A stretch of 64,000 nucleotides of DNA, from the NCBI GenBank assembly GCA_964430885.1, contig CAYSHM010000004.1, positions 32,001 through 96,000 of the forward strand, in the 5' to 3' direction. The stretch is from an uncultured archaeon (lineage in GTDB: Archaea; Thermoplasmatota; Penumbrarchaeia; JASLWR01). The notes below the pieces were generated by a model. It saw only the letters and a program-made list of their open reading frames with translations. It made no database searches and was not told where the DNA came from. The translations under genes were made by a program, and so were the position numbers. Positions 13,173-33,075 of this stretch are shown piece after piece (position 1 is the stretch's first letter; each line of letters starts with the position of its first letter).

Positions 13173-13853
13173 ATGTATCTCAACAGGTTTTGTCATGCAA
13201 TCGTATCTCTTATTATTGTTATGGTGTTGGTAACTGTAAGTATTCCATATACTTCAGCCGAGGAAAACCCGGTAATTGTCCTGGAGACGAATTACGGTAA
13301 AATCAAGGTGGAGCTATATCCTGATTCAGCTCCAAAGACTGTGGAGAACTTCCTGAAATATGTCGAGAGCGGTTTTTTTGATGGACTTATCTTTCATAGG
13401 ATAATTGCTGATTTCATGATCCAGGGCGGTGGATTCAATAAGGAAATGACTAAAAAAAATCCATCCTATGCACCAATAATCAATGAAGCCTCAACTGCTC
13501 AGATCCGTAACAACAGAGGTACTATAGCCATGGCCAGGACTAACGATCCGAATTCGGCAACAAACCAATTCTTTATTAACGTGGTAGATAACAATTTCCT
13601 TGATTGGGATACCAGTGCTGATGGTTACGGTTATTGTGCTTTCGGCAGGGTTACCAAGGGTATGGATGTGGTAGACGATATTGCTTCAGTAAAGACTGGT
13701 AATCAAAATGGATATTCCGACGTACCTAACGAGGACGTGATAATTGAAGAAACTTACGTGAAAGAAATGGAAGCATCTCCTGGTTTTAGAGTGACTCCCC
13801 TACTGATAGCTCTCGGTATTCCAGCAGTGCTTTTTTACTTCAGACGTAGGTAG
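13173..13853 (+). CDS. Secreted cyclophilin-type peptidyl-prolyl isomerase with PGF-CTERM-like anchor
   Basis: Signal peptide; FHRIIADFMIQGGG, GTIAMART, SATNQFFINV, YCAFGRV; C-terminus SPGF-hydrophobic stretch-RRR; GAGGTGA SD. Confidence 0.92.
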   Translation: MYLNRFCHAIVSLIIVMVLVTVSIPYTSAEENPVIVLETNYGKIKVELYPDSAPKTVENFLKYVESGFFDGLIFHRIIADFMIQGGGFNKEMTKKNPSYAPIINEASTAQIRNNRGTIAMARTNDPNSATNQFFINVVDNNFLDWDTSADGYGYCAFGRVTKGMDVVDDIASVKTGNQNGYSDVPNEDVIIEETYVKEMEASPGFRVTPLLIALGIPAVLFYFRRR

Positions 13854-13876: not shown

Positions 13877-16800
13877 TCAATCCATGTATCTCTCCCAATC
13901 TATTTCGATCTCGTTGGAAGGCAGTTCGTCCTCCCATGGTTCCTGCTCTCCCATGGCGTTCCTTCTTTTTGTGTAAAGCGCAATAACGACGACTATGGCC
14001 AGAACTACAGCTAATATTATTATTATCAGTATGGCGAATCCAGAACCGCTAGTGGTCGGAGTTCCAGTGTCGCTGTGCTGCTCTGCCATTGGAGCGAAGA
14101 TGGTGAAATGGGTGACATTGGCATAGATAACATTGTTCTCAGTATCGATCCAGGTTTCCTCAGCCACCTGCCATCCGTTGCTGTTCTCGTCCCAGTAGTA
14201 CACCTTGAGACTATCTTCGCTGATCCCATAAGGCAGATCATCCTCTGAATAATCGATCATCATCCAGTACCAATTTATCTGCCCAGTTATATCTGCCTGA
14301 TATGTGTCCCCAATAAGATATTTATCTGTCGGCAGATCATCCTGTGCCTTCTGAGGCAAACCTGTGAGGTCCTTTAGCTTCCAGGATACTGTCCCCTCAC
14401 CGAAGAACTTGGCCTTGACCAGTCTTCTACCCAGTTCATCAAGGAAATCCACCTCCTTTACTGAATCAAGTGTCAGCGGGATCTCGGCTCTTTTGTCATA
14501 TCCTGCAGTGAATCTGATGCGACCATCCACAATCTCAGGGATAATTATTTGACCGCCTAGAGGTATGAACATGTTATTGGAGGCCGAAAAGCTGCTGCCG
14601 TGTTCAATCTTGTAGGCCGCAGGATAAATAAAGCCACCCTCCATCAATAGAGCATTGAACTCGCCTTCATGTTCTGAATCCAGGGTGAACCAGTTAGGTC
14701 TCTTTTCCAACCTTTTTGTATCAAGGATGTAGTAATGCACAGGGACCTTTAAAGGATCATTGGAGGTATCATTCTTCCAGATAAAGGCATGTGAGTCCCA
14801 GCGGAATTTTCCAATGTCCTGCCAGTTATCCTTGAAATATAGTCCATTATCCCCTGCTTCGCCCTTTTTCTCAATAAGACCCCAATAATCGATGTCCAGA
14901 AATATCTCAAGTTCCCTGAGTTTTTCCATAATTTGCTCGAACAGGGTTTCATTTATGCCGGAAATGTCCGCATTCTTTACGGCCCAGTAAATTATATAAT
15001 AAAGATCTTCTTCCGAAAGGGTTTTGTTCTCATATCCTTTGATCAAAGCTGCCAAAAACAGGGCCAAGTCTGCATGGGCCAGGTCCTGTTTTGATATCAG
15101 ATTAGATAAGATGATTTTGGCTATGATGTCACGGCCGATATGGTCTTTCTCTCTCAATGCCATAAGTAATCTGATGAGTTCATAACCCTCTATGGATCCA
15201 TGTTCATACAGCCATTTAACTATGCCAGTCAGGTTTTCCTCTTCGAATATTCCGTTTTCTCCCAGCATTTCTATGATGTGGGCAGTATCATCGATGGTGA
15301 TGACCGATGAATCCAGGCACATTCCCAGAAGCTCACCCAGGTGGGTTCTGTTGATCTCCTCACTGAGCAAACTTACCAACAGCAGTTCCGTGAACTCATC
15401 CAGGTCGAGTTCACCAGTGTAGTAGGCCTGACCTATGATCCATTTCACATCTTCCAATGTCAATTCGTTTTCCTTGAATGCCATGAACAGGATCCATCTG
15501 ACATCATCCAAAGTCAATTCCCCTTCCTCATAAGCATTGATCAGTATCCATTTCAAAATTGGTTTTGTCAAGAGCTCTTCATTGTAAGCGTGGATAATTA
15601 TCCATTTCATATCCTTTCGGGTCAATTTTCCTTCATTGTAGGCATGAACGATAAGCCATTTCACATCCTCTTTTGTAAGTTCTCCCTCATCATAAGCCTT
15701 GAAGATGATCCATTTCACATCCTCTCTTGTCAATTCCCCCTCCCCATAGGCATGGAAGATAAGCCATCTCAGATCGCTTCTTTCCAGTTCATCCTCGGAA
15801 TACATCATAACAGCCAGATACCAAAGGTCATCCCTTGTAAGCTCTCCTACCTTGTATGCGTGGAAAATGAGCCATCTCAGATCATCCCTTGTGAGATTTC
15901 CCTCCTCATATGAGGAGTGAAGCAGCCATTTCAGCTCATCTCTTGTCAGCATTCCATCATCATATAGAAGCACCAGCAGTTTTTTTACATGGGTCCTGTT
16001 CAGACCATTTTCCTTGTAGAGCATTACTATGATCCATTTCAGTTCGTGCTTGCTGAAATCACCGCTGGCATGAATATCCTTTATTATTCTCCGGATATCC
16101 TCGTGGGTGAGTTCCCCATTTCTGTAGAATAGCGATAACAGCGTTTTGAGTTCTTCGAGTTCAATGTTGCCATCCATATAGGCTTTGGATATGGCCCTTT
16201 TAAGATGGGTGATGTTGATAAGACCGTCATCAAAGGCCCTTTTCAGAAGAATGTGAATATTTTCCAGTTCAAATACATCTTCCATCTGAGCCCTGAAAAG
16301 GATGACTGTGAGATCGTCAATGGATATCTTTCCCTGATGCATGGCCCTGAAAAGGATATCATGTATGTCGTTGATGGATAGGTCGCTCTTATGGTAGGAG
16401 AGAACAAAGAAATCATAGAGTTCGTCAGTGGAGATCACTTCGTTCAAGAATGCATCCATGATCAGATCCCGCATCTCTGAAAAAGTGATGAATCCCTCGT
16501 CATAACCCCCTATGACCAGCCACGCATAGGTCCCGACTTCATCATCGATTGTGTGGTTGTAATGACCAAGGAATGCAACTGACAGCTCAAGTAGGTCCTG
16601 GTAACTTATTTCTCCTCTATTATAGGATTGGAAAAGGGCTAGCCTGATTTCATTCTCCTCGTCCTCATGATTTTTAAAAGCATTCATAATATTATCTATT
16701 ACATTCCCCATCTCCGTGTTGTCATTCTCAAGTATGCTCATATTGTTCTGGGCTGAATCGTAGACCGGGGGCTCGTTTGTTGTATCGTTGGAGTGCTGAT

Positions 16801-19800
16801 CGTTCGCTACATTCTCATTCTGCAGTTCTCCAAGAAGCTCATCGGTGCCGTTCTCGTCAATCTTTTCAGATAGGAAAGCCATTTGAAGTAGGCTGCCTAT
16901 ATCTGCATTGCTGAGATCACTGCTGCCGTGAAGATGAACAAGAGTGCCGTTGATGTCTGTAAGGGAGAACCCGATCCTTTTGTGAAGGTCAAACAGCATT
17001 ATGCGTAGATCGTCCAGGTCCATAAATGCATTATCGTCAGTATTAAGGCCAGCTTCGTTGCTCACCTTTGTTTCAGAATACAATCCGGCTATCACCAAGG
17101 CCATTCTATTATAACTCAAATGCTGATCTAGATGTACAAATATATCAGTTATATCCCGTCTTGTCAATCTATTCTCACTGAATGCTATGGTGAACAGCTG
17201 AACAAGCATTTCTTCATCCAGATAACTCTCGTTTATTCCGTGGGAAATGAATCTGATCCACGCCTCCAATTTCACACCGTCAATGTGGTAAGTATCTATT
17301 AGATGGTGGAGCAAAATTTCAGGTTCGAGTTCGTGAATTTCCTTAGTCCAGAATACCAGGCCGATCCATGTTCCCTCATCTATTACGCCTTTCTCGTAAA
17401 CAGCCTGAAGAAAACTAAGCCAAACCTGGTGCTCCATTATATCATCAAAATATAAATATTGAATAATTTCTTTTATCATATCCGAATCCAGATGGCCGTC
17501 CCTCTTGGCATGAGATAATATCTGAGCAATATCATCGAGTTGGATGTATCCATGGAGGTAACCGATATGCAGAAGTTCGGTCCATCTCTCCCATCCAAGC
17601 AGTTTCTGGTCGTAGACCATTTTCAATAGTTCCAGGTACTCATCACGGCCTATTTTCTCCTCGGAATGCATATCGAACAGTACCAAAAGCAGATCATGCT
17701 CGCTTATCATCTCAAGATCCAGAAGGGATTCCAGTATGTATAGGAAATCTCTTTTATCAAGGGCGCCGTGCTCGTATAGGACCTGCAGAACATCATAGAG
17801 CAGATCGAGGTGTACATCGCCGTGTATGAACTTCTCTATAATAATATCAACAATATCGTTCTTCTCGATCAGTCCTTCATTGTATCCGTGAAGTACCAGG
17901 TCGGCCCAATTCTCAGTTGTTATTACTTCTTTATCATGTATGAGGGTATAGATGTCCTTCCAGTAAAGGTTTTTATCATGGTAGGAAAGTTTTTTCAGAT
18001 AGGTCAATAGCTCTTCACAATCCAAATAACCTTCTGCGTGGGCCCATAGGAATATCTCCACAAGTTCTTCGGAAAGAATGATATCGTAACCATTCTCAAT
18101 GTATCTGTGCATCAGTTCCATTAGCTCGTACGCGTCCAGATCCAACTCCTTTTCTACCTTTATCAATATCCATATTATATCATGAGCATCAATGATGCCA
18201 TATCCATCTGCTTTGATCAGTATTAGCACCATATCGCTTTTGGTTATTATTCCCCTGTTATGGAGCACTATCAGCGTTTCCTTGATATGTTCCAGGGATA
18301 AACCCCTGTCCCTGAAGGCCTCGACCAGTGCAAGTATGTATTCGTCTATGGCCCCTTCACCCTTCTGTAGTTCGTTGATAGCTTCATCAAATTCAATTTC
18401 TTCATGAGAGTATATAACAGCCGATCCTGCTTCATCTTCCCCTTCTCGCCCGTCCAATTCTTTCTCCATTGCATATTCATCAAGATAATTAGCATCCCCG
18501 TCTCCTTCTATGCTCTCAAGCACCTCCTCCTTCAGCCAGGCAGGAACATAGGGTGATATGTGATTTCCCAGTAGTGTAAAACTTTTCATAAAAAGAGATG
18601 TATCCTTGAATCCCTCACTATTTGAGGCTGTTTCCTCATTAACTGGTTCCACATCCCAACCTATAATGCTCTTGCTGTAGCTGAACCTCAATTCTATCAA
18701 TACTCCTGTGCCGCCGTTTTCATAGCCCATTTTACTGCTGAATCCATCATCGGATACCTCGAAGTCATATGATGGGACCCTGTCAAGTGGAACTTCCTTT
18801 ATAACAAGCTCCATTTCAAAATCAAGCTGGAAGGAGTCGAGGACCTCCTCTGGTTGGTTGTATTCCTCTCGCGTCTTATCCTCCACAGCTCCTGGTGAAG
18901 CAGCATATTCATTTTCACCGTTGCCTGTTCCATTATCTTCATAGGTCTTGTATCCAATATTTTCTCTTGTAAGAGTGAATCCCCATACTTTCTTTTCGTG
19001 ATCGCTATTCTTATCAATTGTCTTGGATAGGGTCCATGCCCCTTCCAGGTTGACACTTCTCAGCAGCTCGTGCATCTCACTTTCCTCACTACTGGGATAT
19101 TCGTCCCCTTCCCTTGTCCTGGGACTTTCCGTTCCATCACTTTCCTCATAGGACCAGGTATCGTCATCCTCAAACTCATCGGGGTCAATATCATCATGCA
19201 CAGGTTCGTAGTAATCCTCTTTGAACTCGTAGATGCTGTCGAGTCTCTGGGAGAAAATTGTCTGGACAGGTATTCCGACCCCTTCTTCATCCAAATAATC
19301 ATCTGACCCCTCGATATCAGCCACTCCCGCATATCTGGTGTACATTGATACCAGGGTTATGGCGTTGGGGTTTTCCTCCGTGCCGTAGATGACTGCAAAG
19401 AAGGTATCCTTGTCCATATTGATACCTACATAGTTGCCGCCTCCCAGATAATCAGTGCGACCAGTATCCAGTATTATATCGGCAATATCCGGAAGTTCGG
19501 GAGATTTAATAATTCCTTCATTATTTGAATTGTCATCCTTTTCATCCTGGCTCGAATCTTCCTTTTTGTTACTTGCACCTTCGTCACCGCCGCCTTTCTC
19601 ATCATTTTTGTTACTGGGTTCCACTTCATTGTCCGGTTTTTCCTCTCCTTCGGAATATTCCTCGTTTGCACCTCCATGCTCACTGCCGGACGAATCGACT
19701 CCTCCGGCACTGCTGTTACCATCCTCCTCTATCATCAATGCCAGTACATTGCTTCCTATTCCAGCGGTAAGGAGCATCAACATCCCCAAAACGCAGATAA

Positions 19801-19837
19801 TCCCTCTTAATTTGTCAGTTTTCATAAATATCACCAT
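13877..19837 (-). CDS. Giant membrane-anchored surface protein with ~50 18-aa helical repeats
   Basis: 1986-aa ORF: signal peptide, acidic linker, beta-rich segment, 18-aa repeats, second beta-rich segment, LKVYYWDE...YANVTHFTIFA module, TM helix, KRR and acidic tail. ATG 19825 is the likelier start (GGTGA SD). Confidence 0.9.
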   Translation of the reverse strand: MVIFMKTDKLRGIICVLGMLMLLTAGIGSNVLALMIEEDGNSSAGGVDSSGSEHGGANEEYSEGEEKPDNEVEPSNKNDEKGGGDEGASNKKEDSSQDEKDDNSNNEGIIKSPELPDIADIILDTGRTDYLGGGNYVGINMDKDTFFAVIYGTEENPNAITLVSMYTRYAGVADIEGSDDYLDEEGVGIPVQTIFSQRLDSIYEFKEDYYEPVHDDIDPDEFEDDDTWSYEESDGTESPRTREGDEYPSSEESEMHELLRSVNLEGAWTLSKTIDKNSDHEKKVWGFTLTRENIGYKTYEDNGTGNGENEYAASPGAVEDKTREEYNQPEEVLDSFQLDFEMELVIKEVPLDRVPSYDFEVSDDGFSSKMGYENGGTGVLIELRFSYSKSIIGWDVEPVNEETASNSEGFKDTSLFMKSFTLLGNHISPYVPAWLKEEVLESIEGDGDANYLDEYAMEKELDGREGEDEAGSAVIYSHEEIEFDEAINELQKGEGAIDEYILALVEAFRDRGLSLEHIKETLIVLHNRGIITKSDMVLILIKADGYGIIDAHDIIWILIKVEKELDLDAYELMELMHRYIENGYDIILSEELVEIFLWAHAEGYLDCEELLTYLKKLSYHDKNLYWKDIYTLIHDKEVITTENWADLVLHGYNEGLIEKNDIVDIIIEKFIHGDVHLDLLYDVLQVLYEHGALDKRDFLYILESLLDLEMISEHDLLLVLFDMHSEEKIGRDEYLELLKMVYDQKLLGWERWTELLHIGYLHGYIQLDDIAQILSHAKRDGHLDSDMIKEIIQYLYFDDIMEHQVWLSFLQAVYEKGVIDEGTWIGLVFWTKEIHELEPEILLHHLIDTYHIDGVKLEAWIRFISHGINESYLDEEMLVQLFTIAFSENRLTRRDITDIFVHLDQHLSYNRMALVIAGLYSETKVSNEAGLNTDDNAFMDLDDLRIMLFDLHKRIGFSLTDINGTLVHLHGSSDLSNADIGSLLQMAFLSEKIDENGTDELLGELQNENVANDQHSNDTTNEPPVYDSAQNNMSILENDNTEMGNVIDNIMNAFKNHEDEENEIRLALFQSYNRGEISYQDLLELSVAFLGHYNHTIDDEVGTYAWLVIGGYDEGFITFSEMRDLIMDAFLNEVISTDELYDFFVLSYHKSDLSINDIHDILFRAMHQGKISIDDLTVILFRAQMEDVFELENIHILLKRAFDDGLINITHLKRAISKAYMDGNIELEELKTLLSLFYRNGELTHEDIRRIIKDIHASGDFSKHELKWIIVMLYKENGLNRTHVKKLLVLLYDDGMLTRDELKWLLHSSYEEGNLTRDDLRWLIFHAYKVGELTRDDLWYLAVMMYSEDELERSDLRWLIFHAYGEGELTREDVKWIIFKAYDEGELTKEDVKWLIVHAYNEGKLTRKDMKWIIIHAYNEELLTKPILKWILINAYEEGELTLDDVRWILFMAFKENELTLEDVKWIIGQAYYTGELDLDEFTELLLVSLLSEEINRTHLGELLGMCLDSSVITIDDTAHIIEMLGENGIFEEENLTGIVKWLYEHGSIEGYELIRLLMALREKDHIGRDIIAKIILSNLISKQDLAHADLALFLAALIKGYENKTLSEEDLYYIIYWAVKNADISGINETLFEQIMEKLRELEIFLDIDYWGLIEKKGEAGDNGLYFKDNWQDIGKFRWDSHAFIWKNDTSNDPLKVPVHYYILDTKRLEKRPNWFTLDSEHEGEFNALLMEGGFIYPAAYKIEHGSSFSASNNMFIPLGGQIIIPEIVDGRIRFTAGYDKRAEIPLTLDSVKEVDFLDELGRRLVKAKFFGEGTVSWKLKDLTGLPQKAQDDLPTDKYLIGDTYQADITGQINWYWMMIDYSEDDLPYGISEDSLKVYYWDENSNGWQVAEETWIDTENNVIYANVTHFTIFAPMAEQHSDTGTPTTSGSGFAILIIIILAVVLAIVVVIALYTKRRNAMGEQEPWEDELPSNEIEIDWERYMD
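15430..15950 (-). repeat. 54-bp coding tandem repeat, about 10 well-conserved copies within a longer degenerate array (~14910-18420)
   Basis: Units LTRDELKWLLHSSYEEGN / LTRDDLRWLIFHAYKVGE / LTREDVKWIIFKAYDEGE / LTKEDVKWLIVHAYNEGK; atccatttcacatc-like words recur every 54 nt on the + strand. Confidence 0.9.
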
Positions 19838-19999: not shown

Positions 20000-22819
20000 C
20001 TAAAGTAGTTCAATAGTTCTTTGGATTGCTTTAAGTGCTCCTTTTGATAACAGGGGATTTTCATCCTGGAATGCGACCAATTTTTCTTTAGCTTCTTTCC
20101 CTTTGTCCATAAGTTTGAGCAGTCTGGCTTGAATAATGTGCCCTTCAGATAGAATATCCATATTATCTGCGGAATTTCCCAATTCGATTAACTCATAGGT
20201 ACAACCCAAGGACTCTTGAATGTCATTTTTAAACCAATTCATACCGCATTTTAAAAGGAGAAGTTCCCGTTTCAGATTGATCATCCGAGGATCAAGTATG
20301 TCCTTACCCACGAATTTGGACAGTCTCCCTGCCTTATTTTCCTGCTTCTTGATAATTGCCAATCCACTGTCTATCTTTATTATGAGCTTGTCCAAAGGTA
20401 TCTCGTTCAAATCCACTGGATCCGATTGTTTAAGGAAGGATGTCCTGAAAACCCTGTTCAGTATTCCAAGATGGGCGAGTTCGCATTTCACCTCATTATA
20501 GATGATATCTGATATAACATGAGGCATTTGATAGGTTTCCAGGAGTCCTCTTGCTTTGGCAAATAATTTTTTAGCCTTTAGGTATTCGCCTTTGGAATAT
20601 AGACTCTCAGCAATCAATCTATTGAAGAGGGCTGTGAGATGGTCGTCCCTTCTTCCAGACTGGTTAAGTGCCTTTTTAGCCAGTTTTTCAGCTTTTTCCG
20701 GCAGGCCACAATCAATATAGGTTTTGATAAGGCCCAAATAGATCCTCCCTGCTCTGGCAAATCCGCCGTCTTCATTTGATGATATGCATTTTTCGATCTC
20801 ATTTTCAGCCTTTTTGAACCATTTGGACGCTTCATTATGATCCTGAAGAGATACCTGTTTGGCTATCTCCGTACAAACCCTAGCTTTTTCGAAGCTGTCA
20901 TTTGATGTGTACAGGCCTTTTTCAAGTTCTATGACCTTGGCATTCATGATATCGTGTTGGCGGACCTTCCGCTGCATCTCTTTTAGGGCTTGATATACTG
21001 ATTTTTTGGATATACTTCCCAATTTTCCTTTTCCCCAATAGTCCCATTTATTTTCCTTCAATAATCTTTCAGCCCTTTTCAGATGCTTTTTTGATCTTCT
21101 AATGTCCTTTTCCTGGTATGATATTTCAGACATGTAGACCTCAATGGAAGGGTGGGATTCCCCGATTTTTTTTCTGATCCTTGATAAGAACTCCTTGAGG
21201 ACCTGTGAATGAGGTCCGCGGGTAAGCCATAGGTCCGTCTCGGAAAGAGCTATAAGGGCCTTTTCAGCCGATCCAAGACTGATAAGATGATGCATATATT
21301 CCAGAAAATATATGTCCAGATCCTCAATAATTGATTTTGGGAGGTAATCGCCCTCCTTTTCCCGCTGAAATATCTCCTGAAGGTATTCCCCAAGGTAGTT
21401 GAGAAGTTCTTTCCGCTCCCTGTAGCCGATTTCCTTGGTAATGATCTCAGCTATATGATCATGTACTATATACAGTCCGCCTTCAGTACGGTCAACCAGA
21501 AGGATCGAGTTCAATTTCTCCATTAATTCAGTACCATTTGGTATAATATCTTCTTCCACAGGGACCGTGCACAGAGAAAGAGTTTTCAATAATTTGGTTG
21601 TGTCTTTTTCCAATCCGGCAAGAACCTCTCTTCCTAGTGAACCTTCCTTTCTTGCGGCGATATTTCCTGTCAGCACCTCTTCTTTCCTCAATAATTCCAC
21701 CTGCAACGGTATCCCACCAGTGGCTTTAAGGATCATATTACCCATCTTTTCATCCAATTTATCAGCCCTGCCAAAGATCCTGAGGGAAGCAAGCTGACAG
21801 CATTCAATTTGGGTCAATGGATTAAGCACTATCTTATTCACCCTTTCACCAAGCTTCAATGTGGAATAATCCATTTTTTTTGTTTTTCCCCTTGAAAGAA
21901 GCAAAAAAACTATGTGGCCGCAGCTGCTTGAGACAGTAAGGATCTCTTTTAGCATTTCCTCTAGGCCATCTGGTGCATTGTGCAGGTCGTCAAGGACAAT
22001 CAATATTTTTTTCAGCGATTCGCTGCGCCTGAGCGTTTCGGATAGTTTATCAGATTCAGACCTGTCGAGGAATTCAATCAATTCTTTTCTTAAGGACTCC
22101 AATCCATACCATTTTCTGAACCTTGCATAGAATATATTGTGGCTGGATTTCATTGATCTTATGATTTCACTGGCTAAGGCACTCTTGCCCATTCCGGCCA
22201 TGCCGTACACCCTAAAGCATCGGAAGCCTCCTTTAATCAAGAAGCTAATAATTTTCTTTATTGCGCTCTTTCTTCCAATGAATTCCCCTGTATTAACCAG
22301 ATCCGATAAATGGTGTTTTTTTCTAGATTCCTCCGAACTGCAAGTGGCCCCCCTATCATCCAAAAGATCTGGCAGTTGAGTAAGGTCAATAGTACTGTTT
22401 TTATTAGTCAATATATCAATAAGATGGAAATAAGATACATTTGGATTTATCTTCCTAGCCTCCCTGAAAACATTTAGTATTTTCATTCTTTTCTGTGCAT
22501 CGGCTATGATTACAAGGACGGATTCCCTTTCAATAAAATCAATTATCTTTTTCCCCTGTTCACATCCTGAAGATGACAGTCGATATGCTTTCATCTTTCT
22601 TTTCTGCCCTTTGAAATGGCTGTTCTTAGTCTCCAAAACACCATTTTTTTCCAATTCCTTAAGAGCTCGGGAAACATTGGACTGGGCCATGTTCAGGGCT
22701 TGGGATATCCCCTTCTGGGACACCTGGAGCGGCTGGACGAATTCTTCTCTAAGAGATCGGTATCTCATCAGCCAAAGAATAATTTTTTCTATGATGGATA
22801 GATTGATATTCAAGTTCAA
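20000..22819 (-). CDS. wHTH-STAND (NB-ARC-like) NTPase-TPR-like protein, putative transcriptional regulator
   Basis: N-terminal HTH (SQKGISQALNMAQSNVSRALKELEKNG), FIGR, Walker A GMAGMGKS, Walker B LIVLDD, TGGIPL (GxP), VHD, helical TPR-like C-terminal half. Confidence 0.85.
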   Translation of the reverse strand: MNLNINLSIIEKIILWLMRYRSLREEFVQPLQVSQKGISQALNMAQSNVSRALKELEKNGVLETKNSHFKGQKRKMKAYRLSSSGCEQGKKIIDFIERESVLVIIADAQKRMKILNVFREARKINPNVSYFHLIDILTNKNSTIDLTQLPDLLDDRGATCSSEESRKKHHLSDLVNTGEFIGRKSAIKKIISFLIKGGFRCFRVYGMAGMGKSALASEIIRSMKSSHNIFYARFRKWYGLESLRKELIEFLDRSESDKLSETLRRSESLKKILIVLDDLHNAPDGLEEMLKEILTVSSSCGHIVFLLLSRGKTKKMDYSTLKLGERVNKIVLNPLTQIECCQLASLRIFGRADKLDEKMGNMILKATGGIPLQVELLRKEEVLTGNIAARKEGSLGREVLAGLEKDTTKLLKTLSLCTVPVEEDIIPNGTELMEKLNSILLVDRTEGGLYIVHDHIAEIITKEIGYRERKELLNYLGEYLQEIFQREKEGDYLPKSIIEDLDIYFLEYMHHLISLGSAEKALIALSETDLWLTRGPHSQVLKEFLSRIRKKIGESHPSIEVYMSEISYQEKDIRRSKKHLKRAERLLKENKWDYWGKGKLGSISKKSVYQALKEMQRKVRQHDIMNAKVIELEKGLYTSNDSFEKARVCTEIAKQVSLQDHNEASKWFKKAENEIEKCISSNEDGGFARAGRIYLGLIKTYIDCGLPEKAEKLAKKALNQSGRRDDHLTALFNRLIAESLYSKGEYLKAKKLFAKARGLLETYQMPHVISDIIYNEVKCELAHLGILNRVFRTSFLKQSDPVDLNEIPLDKLIIKIDSGLAIIKKQENKAGRLSKFVGKDILDPRMINLKRELLLLKCGMNWFKNDIQESLGCTYELIELGNSADNMDILSEGHIIQARLLKLMDKGKEAKEKLVAFQDENPLLSKGALKAIQRTIELL

Positions 22820-28267: not shown

Positions 28268-31200
28268 TTACATCCAATCCTCATCTTCCTCCAGGAAAAG
28301 TTCATCGTCTGATTCATCATCACCTTCTCTTCCTTGAGGCAAAGCAAGTGTATTATCATCTTTTGGTCCCCCAGTATGAAGGCTGAGGGGTTTTTCATCT
28401 TCCTCATCACCGGATAATATCGGTCCGCCGGAAGTGAAGGAAACCGCATTCTCTTCCTCTTCAACCTCACCCTGAAATACAATAGTGTCTTCTTCAGGTT
28501 CTTCATTCTCATCCTCCCATTCATCCGGCGCAAATATGTCATCATGATAATCTTCTTCTTCCTCTTTATTGTGTTTTCTCTGTCTTAGGGCCAAGAATAC
28601 CAGTATTATTATTATTAATGCAATTATTAGAAGCCCCACAATAAGTAAACTGTCCCTTCCTTCGGAGGATTGTCTTACAAAATCAGAATATGTGTCGAGG
28701 TTGTCTTTAATCCAAGAAAATGGTTTTTCCTTTGAGTCATCATTATAATCCAAAGTGATCATGGTATCATCGGCCAGTTCTGAACCGAAGTCTATTTCGA
28801 ATGTGACGCTTCCCGAGTCGTCTGTGGTCCCTGAATATTTCCTCCCATCCAATTCAAAGGAAATACTGATGCCGGGAATGTTGTTTCCGTTGGAATCTCT
28901 GAAAGGTCCAATTGTAACTTCTTCGGTAATTCCTAATAATACAATCAAGTATCCTCTGATATCTTTGGAAATGTTCATTGTCGTAGTAAAATCCTTGTAT
29001 CCTTCCTTTTTGCCAAGTATTTCATAGGTTCCAGTAATCAGTCTCATAGTGAAATTTCCATTGAATGTTTCGATGAGAGTTCCATCAATAAAAATGTCTG
29101 CATCAACAGGAACTATCGAGCCTGAAAATGTGTGGTTGTAATCCAATATGTCCTCAATATTTTCTTCTAAAGTGATTAAAGCCGTACTAGTGAACTCCTT
29201 TTTAAAAAATACGCTGGTAGCCGCTGGATCATAAATTGTCCGATTGATTACCGTATCGTGACTGCCTTTCCTAGAGAATGTTCCATAACCATATTCATAT
29301 TCCTCCAATTCGGCATGAATCTTCCAGTAACCTGTTGTTGCGGATTGAGGGAGATCCTCCCTGTCCTCCCGGTAGGTTTTTAGTCCGGTCTGGGGATATG
29401 CCTCTATCTCGGTATTTGATAAGGGAATGTCCAGGAAGTAGAACTTTCCCTCATCATCGGTAACGGCAGTTAAGTTATACCAAGTCCTGTTGGTAACGTT
29501 TATCAAGGATTTTTTGACGACCCCGGCAATAGTAATATCCACCATCATTGAGTCCTTTTCATCAACAAATACGATTAATTCAATTGAAACGCCTTCCAAA
29601 TAATTGCCAACAGTGTCATTTACCGACCCATTCAGTTGTGCGGGGGAGGGAATGGTCTTCTTTATGATGATAAAGTTCTGGGTAATCGGGAATGTGTCCA
29701 AATTTAATTCCAATTTGATCATGCGCTGGGATGGATAACCTTGTGGATATCCGTCTTCATATCCGTTTTCAACTATCCAGTCCCAATCCAATTTGGCAAT
29801 ATAATCTTTCATTGGAAGGTTTATGGAATAAAAACCGGACGAATCTGATGTAATGTTGTAATAATTCCCCCCGTCGTAAATGACAATAGTGGCACCTTCA
29901 ACAGGCATACCTTCCTGATCTATCACCTTCCCGCTGATAGAGCCGTCATCTGGTGGAAGTACCAACAAAGAATAATTAAGTCCGTTATTGGTATAATTTC
30001 TCCCATTACCCTGATCATCTTCGGTATAGAAGCTGTAATAATGTTCCTGACCTATATGATAAGGATCGGATTCCTCATCCCATGTTGCAATCCATTGAAA
30101 CTGGAAATTCACGATATCGTTCCACTGATTGCCCTGGGGTTCCATTTGATGCTGAACGCCGTCAATAATAATATTCACAATTCCCTGGTCATTGTCTATA
30201 TCACTATAGTTCAAATTAAAGGTTACGGTGTCCCCGGCAGTGATGGAATCGTATGGCATATGCGTTATATTGTTCAGAGCTGGAGGTTGGTTGGGGAATG
30301 AATCCACATATATCGTGGATGTATTGACCGTTCCAGTAGTTGTTTCTTCCATTTCAATAACATATTCTCCTTCTTCTTCGATCACGATCCCCTTGTAAGA
30401 TAGTTCTATGGGATGTCCAGACATGCTTATTGGCGGAATGTTCCTATCGGTGGTATTGATATGTGTAGAGTCACCGGGATTGTTCGAGGGATAATATGAG
30501 AGTACCAATTCTGCCTGAAGCAGACTGTTGCCAGTATTTTCCACAAATACTGATAGCGCAAATTCATAGCCAGCAAAGACATTTGGAGGTTCGGTTTCTG
30601 AAATGTTGAGTTCCACAGCACTGATATTTTGAATGATTATCTGAAAAGTGGTGGAATTGGTTGTGGCATTCGGTCTCGTCAAGAAATCATTGGATATGGT
30701 AAAGGTGACTTGAAATGTATCTTCGTGGGTAGGCGTCCATCGGAAGTTATTTAATATTGGCTGATCAACAGTATCCAGATAGTCAATATCTACAGTGTCA
30801 CCATCTATGGTTTGATCATTTTGATTGCTGTCTTCTATTTCAAGTTTCAGCTGATAATTACTTGCCGGAATGTTGCCAGTATTATTGATAATGCAATTAA
30901 GGCTAGTTGTACTTTTGGAGTAGACTCCATTATCGTCACCAATACCGTAAATCTCATAGTTCAAACTGAACTGAACAATGTTTCTGAACTCAATATATCG
31001 AATTATTTGATCATTGACCATACTGCCAGCAATAGTAGACCATCCTTCAATAATGACTGTTATCTCATACCAGCCCTCCTCCTGAAAATTCAATCCGAGC
31101 TGTGAATTATGCCTTCCATTCTGGAGATCCCCGTTTCCAGTATCATTATTATCAGTATAGGTTTGATTGGCATTATCTATAGCGACAGATGTGTTGACGT

Positions 31201-31441
31201 TAAGAATATTTTCAGCAAGAGTAAAAGATATTCCTAAAACATGAGGTGTGTTCGAAAATACACCATTCACATTCGGATCACCCTTTATTTCCAATGAATT
31301 GATTGTTATTTCACCAGCCCGGCCGGAACGGTTTTCACTTCTTTCATTATATTCTCCAAAAATATTTGGACTGAGACTGTTTATTAATATCACAACTAGG
31401 GCAAAATATAGGTATTTCAATAACGATTTTTTGTTTTTCAT
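28268..31441 (-). CDS. Membrane-anchored surface protein with CARDB/Ig-like and carboxypeptidase-regulatory-like domains and an acidic cytoplasmic tail
   Basis: Signal peptide; INNTGN and VENTGN; GSISGKVIDQEGMPVEGATI; many N-x-S/T sequons; C-terminal TM, RQRK and a ~100-aa D/E-rich tail. Confidence 0.85.
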   Translation of the reverse strand: MKNKKSLLKYLYFALVVILINSLSPNIFGEYNERSENRSGRAGEITINSLEIKGDPNVNGVFSNTPHVLGISFTLAENILNVNTSVAIDNANQTYTDNNDTGNGDLQNGRHNSQLGLNFQEEGWYEITVIIEGWSTIAGSMVNDQIIRYIEFRNIVQFSLNYEIYGIGDDNGVYSKSTTSLNCIINNTGNIPASNYQLKLEIEDSNQNDQTIDGDTVDIDYLDTVDQPILNNFRWTPTHEDTFQVTFTISNDFLTRPNATTNSTTFQIIIQNISAVELNISETEPPNVFAGYEFALSVFVENTGNSLLQAELVLSYYPSNNPGDSTHINTTDRNIPPISMSGHPIELSYKGIVIEEEGEYVIEMEETTTGTVNTSTIYVDSFPNQPPALNNITHMPYDSITAGDTVTFNLNYSDIDNDQGIVNIIIDGVQHQMEPQGNQWNDIVNFQFQWIATWDEESDPYHIGQEHYYSFYTEDDQGNGRNYTNNGLNYSLLVLPPDDGSISGKVIDQEGMPVEGATIVIYDGGNYYNITSDSSGFYSINLPMKDYIAKLDWDWIVENGYEDGYPQGYPSQRMIKLELNLDTFPITQNFIIIKKTIPSPAQLNGSVNDTVGNYLEGVSIELIVFVDEKDSMMVDITIAGVVKKSLINVTNRTWYNLTAVTDDEGKFYFLDIPLSNTEIEAYPQTGLKTYREDREDLPQSATTGYWKIHAELEEYEYGYGTFSRKGSHDTVINRTIYDPAATSVFFKKEFTSTALITLEENIEDILDYNHTFSGSIVPVDADIFIDGTLIETFNGNFTMRLITGTYEILGKKEGYKDFTTTMNISKDIRGYLIVLLGITEEVTIGPFRDSNGNNIPGISISFELDGRKYSGTTDDSGSVTFEIDFGSELADDTMITLDYNDDSKEKPFSWIKDNLDTYSDFVRQSSEGRDSLLIVGLLIIALIIIILVFLALRQRKHNKEEEEDYHDDIFAPDEWEDENEEPEEDTIVFQGEVEEEENAVSFTSGGPILSGDEEDEKPLSLHTGGPKDDNTLALPQGREGDDESDDELFLEEDEDWM

Positions 31442-31878: not shown

Positions 31879-33075
31879 ATGGTTCACATGAAGGAGGATC
31901 CTTTGATGAGAAACTTGGTAGATGATATATTAAAGAGAAGGAAGTCTAAGAATAAGGAAACAGTCACACCGAAAAAAACATTCACCCCGGAAAAAAAACC
32001 GCCGGTTAGGAGGCCTGAACCACAGATGGTCTCTGACCCTCAGGAAGGTATTAGCGATGCAGCGCTAAAAGCTATTGCTGACAAGATAAAACCTGCAATC
32101 AAGATAGTTGGCTGTGGCGGTGCTGGCTGTAATACTATCAATAGGTGCAATGAAGAGATCACCAATGTTGATATGTATGCTCTAAATACGGATGCTGCTC
32201 ATTTATATAAAATCAAATCCCCCAACAAACTCCTTATTGGAGAGCATGTTACCAGGGGATTGGGGGCTGGTGCAAAACCTCAGATAGGTGAGAGAGCCGC
32301 CCAGGAAGTAGAACATAAGATAAATGAACTTCTGATGGATGCCAAGATGGTCTTTATAACATGCGGAATGGGAGGTGGAACCGGAACCGGATCTGCTCCA
32401 TATGTTGCCAAACTTGCGAGGGATATGGGTAAAGCTATGACCTTGGCAATAGTGACCTATCCATTTGAAGCGGAAGGCCTTGCCAGAAGGCAGAATGCAC
32501 TATGGGGTATTAACAAGCTGAAATCCGTTGCCAATACGGTAATTGTGATCAAGAACGACAAACTCCTAGAATTGGTACCACGTTTGCCGCTTGATTCGGC
32601 TTTCAGGGTAGCTGATGAAATACTCATGAGGTCAATTAAATCCCTTACTGCAATAATCACTGAACCTGGTCTTATTAATTTGGATTACAACGATGTGGCA
32701 AAGGTTATTGTTGACGGTGGCGGATTGGCTATGATAGGAATGGGTAAATCCGATGGTGATGACAGAGTTACTGAAGCTGTTGATGAAGCCATAAATTCTC
32801 CACTTCTGGATATGGACATCTCAAACGCCAGGAGCTGTTTGATAAATGTTGTAGGCGGTCCAGGAATGACTGTAGAGGAAGCAAATGGAGCAGCCGAAAT
32901 GGTTCAGCAGAAGATAGATCCCAATGCTGAGGTGATATTGGGAGCCCGGATAGATCCGACACTGGAAGGGGCTTTGGAAATAATGATAGTCCTTACAGGT
33001 GTAGTATCTAAAGATATCGATAAAGCTCAAATGAATGATCCATTCGGGGCTTCCAACATACCGTATATTGAATAG
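31879..33075 (+). CDS. ftsZ: Cell division protein FtsZ (FtsZ1 context)
   Basis: [41 protein letters not shown]; upstream of secE-spt5. True start may be 31906 (AGGAGG SD). Confidence 0.97.

Follow-up and report, generated by a model that had tools for sequence, protein, structure and literature searches.

A rare array of about 60 predicted helical repeats within the beta-rich ectodomain of a putative surface protein from a Thermoplasmatota archaeon

The present analysis concerns a window of 64,000 nucleotides (nt) from an uncultured archaeon of the Thermoplasmatota (assembly GCA_964430885.1, contig CAYSHM010000004.1, forward-strand positions 32,001 to 96,000), in which the minus strand carries a giant gene at 13877..19837, a single uninterrupted open reading frame (ORF) of 1986 amino acids (aa) plus stop. 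Nucleotide positions below refer to this window, and residue numbers to the 1,986-aa protein, designated P0001. The reading that we favour, with moderate confidence, is that P0001 is a probably self-cleaving, transmembrane (TM)-anchored surface protein, in which a rare helical array of about 60 units has been inserted into a beta-rich ectodomain and projects from it as a hairpin or loop.

The repeat array and its predicted fold

Autocorrelation with BLOSUM62 scores over aa 473-1642 gave peaks at lags of 18, 36 and 54 residues (0.56, 0.22 and 0.14, respectively), with all remaining lags at or below -0.70. No comparable peak was observed in the N-terminal 470 aa or the C-terminal 344 aa. The array extends from about aa 486 to 1654 (window 14876-18382) and comprises a total of approximately 59-61 units, which are arranged in two blocks delimited by their register and predicted helices. 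Block A (aa 486-1005; 16823..18382, minus strand) contains approximately 27-29 degenerate helix-turn units, namely 24 rows of 18 residues at aa 495-926, with a local wobble of +/-2 near aa 585-638, and, after a short break, 3-4 further units at aa 939-1005. Block B (aa 1059-1654; 14876..16663, minus) contains approximately 32 units, and its residues 1063-1638 form 32 rows of 18 in one register throughout. Located between the two is a spacer rich in Asn, Asp and Gln (aa 1006-1058; 16664..16822, minus), with 24.5% Asn and a grand average of hydropathy (GRAVY) of -1.26. A single 18-position HMMER model found only 13 seed units and 2 weak matches, and a parse with a position-specific scoring matrix (PSSM) derived from block B was used instead. 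It detected 45 non-overlapping units in P0001, of which 43 lie within aa 513-1624 and two (aa 359 and aa 1906) lie outside the array and are probably false. For comparison, 50 shuffles yielded a mean of 4.9 units (maximum 13) for the whole protein and 3.6 (maximum 10) for the repeat region. The consensus of the unit is L-T-x-x-D-L-x-x-L-L-x-x-A-Y-x-x-G-x, in which positions 1, 6, 9, 10, 13 and 14 are hydrophobic, and blocks A and B display a weak similarity to each other (E 2e-8).

A preliminary description of the window had reported an 18-aa repeat whose two blocks are separated by an N/D/Q-rich spacer, an observation with which the autocorrelation, the register and the PSSM counts relative to shuffled sequences agree well. 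Its figure of about 50 copies was too low, its span of 14910-18420 requires correction to that given above, and the spacer, while present, begins and ends slightly before the region near 16700-16830 in which it had been placed. It had also characterised the units as very hydrophobic, which was overstated: GRAVY is -0.03 in block A and -0.12 in block B, Leu and Ile together account for 25-27% of residues, Asp and Glu for 19-20%, and the net charge is -67 in block A and -54 in block B. The units had further been called His-rich, which is correct to a moderate degree only, since His reaches 5.5% in block A, 3.6% in block B and 3.8% in the spacer, whereas the leader at the N-terminus and the domains without repeats have 0.9-1.8%.

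At the DNA level, only four short arrays of 54/108 nt were found, all within 15437-15979 and with 73-76% identity. The repeats are judged from the sequence to be old, without recent amplification. Three orthologues maintain the register and a nearly equal number of units at 31-35% identity. An antisense ORF of 190 aa lies inside block B at 15341-15913 on the plus strand, with a translation that is itself periodic; most probably it is an artefact that mirrors the repeat and not a gene. Neither Rfam nor a tRNA scan gave any match in the window.

The fold of the array was predicted with AlphaFold2, run on two halves separately, each with a 4-sequence alignment. Every unit was modelled as a 13-residue helix followed by a 5-residue turn, each amphipathic helix being closed by the turn sequence G-x-[LI]-[TS]. 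Block A displayed 29 predicted helices with a predicted local distance difference test score (pLDDT) of 70-88, and block B approximately 32, of which 26 follow one another at exactly 18 residues, with pLDDT up to 96. The spacer was of low confidence at the end of one model (mbb8910a3cc35, aa 1024-1040), and in the other (mf5dfbdbc56ae) it formed helices of modest confidence at aa 1041-1058 (pLDDT block means 48-57). A Foldseek comparison with the PDB listed helical repeat proteins only, at TM-scores of 0.08-0.2, and did not bring out the C-terminal domain, which became apparent with VIA-align. In a VIA-align search over 48,161 representative chains the best helical Z-scores were 10.2 and 11.3, and for helical repeats a Z below approximately 13 may reflect merely a common arrangement. 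The structures matched were designed helical repeats, PPR10, HAT/TPR proteins, Sel1, MIF4G/HEAT-like domains and the clathrin leg, all of which are generic alpha-alpha solenoids. The check by AlphaFold and Foldseek that had been suggested earlier accordingly gave helix-turn units and generic solenoid matches alone. The 61 predicted helices would be stacked in tandem in an open, elongated array, as in the alpha-alpha solenoid class, and the array is predicted to consist of two such solenoid blocks (approximately 29 and 32 helices) with antiparallel helix stacking and a flexible spacer between them. Two other folds were considered and rejected. A beta-solenoid, with which a period of 18 would be compatible, was ruled out as all units are predicted to be helical, and membrane-embedded helices were ruled out by the net charges of the blocks and by the lack of any repeat window with hydropathy above 1.6.

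Position of the array in the ectodomain and the juxtamembrane domain

It can be observed from related proteins that the array interrupts an ectodomain which is common elsewhere. The region preceding it, hereafter the N-part (aa 116-485; 18383..19492, minus), is beta-rich and modelled with low AlphaFold2 confidence, and the region following it, the C-part (aa 1655-1765; 14543..14875, minus), carries the motifs F-x-D-N-W and G-G-[FY]-I-Y-P; both were delimited by BLASTP to paralogues of about 500 aa. A profile of the N-domain has matches in 52/401 Thermoplasmatota genomes and 37/162 genera, in open frames ranging from 143 to 721 aa, almost all at 416-721 aa, and this genome itself possesses one such short paralogue (G000:C13, 534 aa). 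The short paralogues consist of a signal peptide, the N-part, a low-complexity linker of approximately 30 aa, a segment with F-x-D-N-W / G-G-Y-I-Y-P, and a TM helix, the last of which directly follows the G-G-Y-x-Y-P part in the sequences that include the C-terminus (n = 15). Their BLASTP alignments to P0001 cover aa 121-485 (E 1e-28) or aa 134-451 (E 1e-24) and continue directly at aa 1664-1770, and on the basis of these alignments the approximately 1,170 repeat residues are regarded as an insertion exactly where two parts meet that adjoin each other in the short proteins. Pfam contains no family for the short paralogues or the core ectodomain parts. In a sequence search of the PDB the N-domain profile had 0 matches and the C-domain profile a single insignificant one (E 0.93).

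The two parts flanking the array are predicted to bind each other. Complex prediction of N-part aa 110-480 with C-part aa 1655-1753, using 14-row alignments for each, resulted in an interaction prediction score from aligned errors (ipSAE) of 0.67 (three runs, 0.62-0.70), the best of 3 controls being 0.00. In a benchmark, 0.67 was reached by 58/80 solved complexes and 2/110 mismatched pairs, counts that hold only roughly here, given the custom alignments. At least 69% of contacts are common to the runs, and partner pLDDT is at least 65. The tightest predicted contacts place aa 414-423 antiparallel to aa 1730-1738, both of which are conserved motifs. A pass derived from model memory is unlikely, since the sequence searches detected no solved relative. 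The prediction therefore supports, at the level of a model, binding between the N-part and the C-part.

Between the C-part and the membrane lies a predicted beta-sandwich domain (aa 1766-1923; 14069..14542, minus), overlooked in the preliminary description, for which VIA-align of the predicted model (pLDDT approximately 70-80) points to a likeness to GAIN-B and ZU5. Its best matches are the ankyrin ZU5 domains (Z 10.6, 10.3 and 9.9), followed by the FIIND domains of CARD8 and NLRP1 (Z 9.0, 7.9 and 7.2, with CARD8 at 9.0) and the GAIN domains of BAI3 (8.6), CD97 (8.5), CELSR1, Gpr126, GPR56 and GPR110 (Z 8.6-6.3 for the group). The matched chains include 6m3q_E (Z 10.6, root mean square deviation (rmsd) 3.5, 128 aligned), 3ud1_A (10.3), 7jkq_B (9.0), 4dlo_B (8.6) and 9mqr_A (8.5). 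The ZU5, FIIND and GAIN folds are regarded as a single ancient autoproteolytic domain (compare the title of Liao et al. 2014). A candidate autoproteolysis triad, H1910-F1911-T1912 (14102..14110, minus), falls in the turn that separates the final two strands of the model (residues 864-869 and 874-880). The sequence H-F-T-I-F-A-P-M is invariant in 4/4 orthologues, and H-[FL]-T is present in 9/9 aligned modules. Moreover, two natural N-terminal cleavage fragments, NLRP1 to F1212 and GPR56 to L382, can be aligned with the model as far as residue 872 (F1911); both ends are given as cut sites in the literature (PMC9700037, PMC13123842). Judged from the model, the juxtamembrane domain is most likely self-cleaving, with the cut at the F1911/T1912 bond.

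A comparable module in bacteria and archaea is the MAIN domain, which the available part of a preprint (Brogan & Rudner, bioRxiv 10.64898/2026.05.12.724683) describes as GAIN-B-like, cut at H-F|S, and arranged in the order signal peptide, ectodomains, MAIN and anchor. P0001 resembles that description in having a beta-sandwich next to the anchor, H-x-[ST] before the last strand and a large ectodomain behind a signal peptide, and in sharing its module with many large proteins that carry adhesion-type domains. It differs in that its anchor is a TM helix with a conserved cytoplasmic tail, whereas sortase, SLH or cell-wall anchors appear in the portion of the preprint available, and in that the triad is H-F-T or H-L-T, in contrast to the H-F-S cut in YfkN given there; a sequence-level link from the P0001 domain to bacterial MAIN or to Pfam GAIN/ZU5 is likewise lacking. 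The P0001 family may already be listed among the entries of that preprint. The H-x-T module also ends 21 other large proteins with beta-helix, CARDB, PKD, Big_2 or fn3 domains, those with names being from Thermoplasmata or Thermoplasmatota metagenome-assembled genomes. It occurs, as H-[FL]-T, four times in this 3.1-Mb genome, in which three more giant ORFs (2116, 2179 and 1630 aa; G000:C1:280-654, G000:C10:10015-10428 and G000:C13:15432-15818) end in an H-L-T module followed by a TM helix and an acidic tail. In the ESM Atlas the H-F-T module matched unnamed clusters only (0.91-0.93).

Since the flanking parts are predicted to pair strand-to-strand, both ends of the array would be brought close together near a membrane-proximal head, from which blocks A and B would project, forming a hairpin or loop whose candidate tip is the spacer. 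Between this head and the TM helix, the GAIN-B/ZU5-like domain would cleave itself at F1911/T1912, and thereafter the ectodomain of approximately 1,900 aa would be held by the last beta-strand alone. The arm could function in adhesion or in reaching over a long distance, and pulling on it could release the ectodomain. As a further step, a force-bearing arm combined with a self-cleaved domain might represent an archaeal counterpart of adhesion-receptor mechanosensing, in which the remaining stub (last strand, TM helix and D-W-x-R-Y tail) signals inside, perhaps to an adjacent HTH-STAND ATPase; this step is speculative and we consider it quite improbable. If the favoured reading is true, P0001 would stand as one of the rare examples of an archaeal alpha-solenoid predicted to be extracellular, built from a one-helix unit of 18 residues for which no separate family exists. 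It would also illustrate a route to a giant surface protein, in which a small, widespread ectodomain acquired both a self-cleaving module and a repeat array by insertion. Furthermore, the microbial GAIN-like domains would gain a TM-anchored archaeal subfamily in which H-[FL]-T triads are combined with conserved cytoplasmic tails. The regularity of the repeats and their high predicted confidence make them a candidate scaffold for repeat-protein design.

Several points weigh against a self-cleaving ectodomain with a projecting loop. Z-scores of 8-10.6 for the juxtamembrane domain lie just modestly above 7-8, the value typical of VIA-align for unmatched models, and no Pfam GAIN, GPS, ZU5 or FIIND match was obtained at E <= 1. 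Blocks A and B were folded separately and from shallow 4-sequence alignments. The binding score between N-part and C-part expresses model confidence with a rough calibration. The two core parts are poorly predicted when modelled alone (pLDDT <50), and they could be separate domains in vivo, as a low-complexity linker of approximately 30 aa occupies the insertion point in the short paralogues.

The same linker is among the grounds for a different arrangement, in which the array is a straight, linear alpha-solenoid rod that lifts the N-part, with the C-part and the H-F-T domain at its base. Because of the linker, the N-part and C-part might be independent domains, and the order of the chain (N-part, array, C-part, TM helix) would suit a stalk. 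Moreover, a rod resembling the clathrin leg was matched over model residues 155-603 (305 aligned, Z 8.2, rmsd 7.6). However, the predicted pairing of the N-part with the C-part through conserved strands far exceeds its controls, and both the poor folding of the two core parts when modelled apart and the division into two blocks of nearly equal size, joined at the centre by a flexible spacer, speak against a straight rod. It is for the predicted binding of the flanking parts that a hairpin or loop is preferred, and the straight stalk is regarded as rather unlikely. The preliminary description had proposed an alpha-solenoid stalk or filament; the helical solenoid is retained here as a prediction, while the inserted position and the pairing of the flanks do not favour a simple stalk, and none of the results of this analysis favours a filament.

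Relation of the repeat to known families

The repeat was compared with known families through profile A6, which spans 72 positions and was built from 33 in-register segments of four orthologues. Against 1.84 billion representative proteins it retrieved 22 proteins at E <= 1e-3, and in the 401 sampled Thermoplasmatota genomes it matched only the 4 genomes of this family. By this profile search, a check recommended in the preliminary description, the repeat is rare. No usable match for the repeats was found in the ESM Atlas, and in a literature search on 18-residue repeats, alpha-solenoids and archaea the phrase "18-residue repeat" was not found among the matches listed.

The earlier statement that no family could be recognised holds in Pfam, where two marginal results were obtained. 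DUF7229 (PF23875) reached 27.3 bits in sum as against a cut-off of 27; no individual stretch did so, and the match was confined to profile positions 59-88 of 90. The database annotation of the identical cluster lists PF23875. A six-frame scan of this genome for the DUF7229 family gave no match, 0/14 control genomes matched either, and a literature search did not find the term DUF7229. DUF1707, described as "SHOCT-like" (PF08044), scored 17.4 bits (E 0.0045), short of its gathering score of 27.6. At E <= 1, P0001 had no match to Pfam SHOCT (PF09851, gathering score 27 bits) or to Pfam TPR, HEAT, Sel1 and PPR.

The loose resemblance to SHOCT that had been remarked upon earlier is reinforced by profile comparison. 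P0018, a weaker match of A6, contains an 18-residue array that exceeds the Pfam SHOCT cut-off (37.8 bits), and hhalign aligned A6 with this array in register at 96.4% probability (E 1.3e-9), the controls reaching 6.2% for the reversed profile and at most 6.3% for 20 column permutations. The repeat shares with SHOCT and DUF1707 a helix, the turn G-x-[LI]-[TS]-x-[DE]-[DE] and a second helix, and 18-residue tandem arrays of SHOCT type do exist, as in P0018. The two amphipathic helices and the turn with conserved Gly and Glu that mark SHOCT are recognisable in the consensus ..A-Y-x-x-G-x-L-T-x-x-D-L.. with its predicted helix-turn-helix. According to the accessible text of one study (PMC3581485), SHOCT is typically a single C-terminal element of approximately 30 aa, multi-copy proteins are rare, and no oligomerisation was found in the test performed there. 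P0001 differs in that it has approximately 60 internal tandem copies, rather than the usual single copy within 50 aa of the C-terminus, together with an additional W-L-I and A-Y core. In terms of sequence, the repeat is a rare, unnamed variant of the SHOCT-like helix-turn motif which remains below the SHOCT and DUF1707 thresholds.

It could be supposed from this relationship that P0001 carries a divergent SHOCT-family array whose role is binding or self-association, in a lattice, coat or filament, rather than reach. The alignment with the P0018 array is in accordance with such a proposal, as are the summed DUF1707/DUF7229 matches above the cut-offs in some relatives considered below, but the sub-threshold scores of P0001 itself and the single-copy, non-oligomerising character of SHOCT in the study cited make it improbable. 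In comparison with TPR, HEAT, Sel1 and the clathrin leg, P0001 has the same antiparallel stacked helices and short turns in its predicted fold, and two of its units amount to 36 aa, close to the TPR unit of approximately 34 aa and the HEAT unit of approximately 40 aa given in the available text of PMC11514114. In contrast to the two-helix units of TPR, HEAT and Sel1, its period corresponds to one helix (18 aa), and it is predicted to be extracellular.

The 18-aa unit of P0001 is also present in a second architecture, represented by the best of the 22 proteins retrieved, P0007-P0014 (314-929 aa; E 6e-114 to 5e-45 to the repeat profile). These proteins contain runs of approximately 7-16 units and a signal peptide wherever the N-terminus is complete (P0007, P0011 and P0014). 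Their autocorrelation is higher at lag 36 than at lag 18, and units with and without Trp alternate as a 36-aa super-repeat, the predominance of lag 36 being compatible with a two-helix structural repeat. Unlike in P0001, the array is N-terminal and is followed by a long helical C-terminal domain, without a TM helix or an H-x-T module. Some proteins of this type pass the Pfam cut-offs by the summing of weak DUF1707/DUF7229 matches. No example of the architecture was found in the 401 sampled Thermoplasmatota genomes.

Topology, orthologues and neighbouring genes

The N-terminus of P0001 resembles a signal peptide by hydropathy and direct reading (aa 1-35; 19733..19837, minus), with K6, K9 and R11 preceding the hydrophobic stretch. 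It is followed by an acidic, low-complexity linker rich in Gly, Ser and Asn (aa 36-115; 19493..19732, minus; pLDDT <30), as judged from composition. At the other end, a TM helix (aa 1934-1955; 13973..14038, minus), with hydropathy up to 3.85, precedes K-R-R and a short acidic cytoplasmic tail (aa 1956-1986; 13880..13972, minus), which is conserved in orthologues and terminates in D-W-x-R-Y. Kyte-Doolittle values above 1.6 over 19 residues are reached at just two places, aa 9-37 and aa 1926-1959. From hydropathy and the positive-inside rule (K6/K9/R11 and K-R-R), the approximately 1,890 residues between both hydrophobic segments are predicted to be outside the cell, in keeping with the earlier placement of the repeats between a signal peptide and a C-terminal TM helix.

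Full-length orthologues of 2003, 2011 and 1988 aa, with 31-32% identity, are present in 3/3 other genomes of the same family. A full-length search of 5.8 billion proteins returned P0001 itself, one chance match and nothing else, and an NCBIfam scan of P0001 gave no meaningful match. That the bulk of P0001 is cytoplasmic, or that the ORF is not expressed as one protein owing to a mis-called start or a pseudogene, is hardly credible: an intracellular location is usual for alpha-solenoids, and His and a few Cys occur in the repeats, but the 1986-aa frame is uninterrupted and conserved, including its ends, in 4/4 family genomes, positive charges lie on the same (inner) side of both hydrophobic segments, the repeat unit stands behind signal peptides in P0007, P0011 and P0014, and proteins of the H-x-T module family are, according to the available part of the preprint (bioRxiv 10.64898/2026.05.12.724683), secreted and anchored at the surface.

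Within the cytoplasmic tail, D1980, W1981, R1983 and Y1984 are invariant in 4/4 orthologues. Other proteins with the H-x-T module (P0028-P0032, L032-L034) have long acidic tails, some with zinc ribbons and D-W-D-like ends. The D-W-x-R-Y and D-W-D-like ends may represent a common intracellular contact.

Directly upstream of the giant gene, the minus strand encodes at 20000-22819 a 939-aa protein composed of an N-terminal HTH, a STAND-type ATPase (AAA_16/NB-ARC) and TPR. A comparable HTH-ATPase ORF adjoins a short paralogue in another genome (L044 2012-3001). The HTH-STAND ATPase gene is absent from the orthologous position in two of the family genomes, G001 and G003. Convergent with the giant gene, at 13173-13853 on the plus strand, lies a cyclophilin-type peptidyl-prolyl isomerase with a signal peptide and a C-terminal TM helix, and a cyclophilin with an extra fn3 domain occupies the equivalent position in G001 and G003. 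Further along, the minus strand encodes at 28268-31441 a 1057-aa protein that matches CarboxypepD_reg and macroglobulin MG4 and probably also belongs to the large surface proteins.

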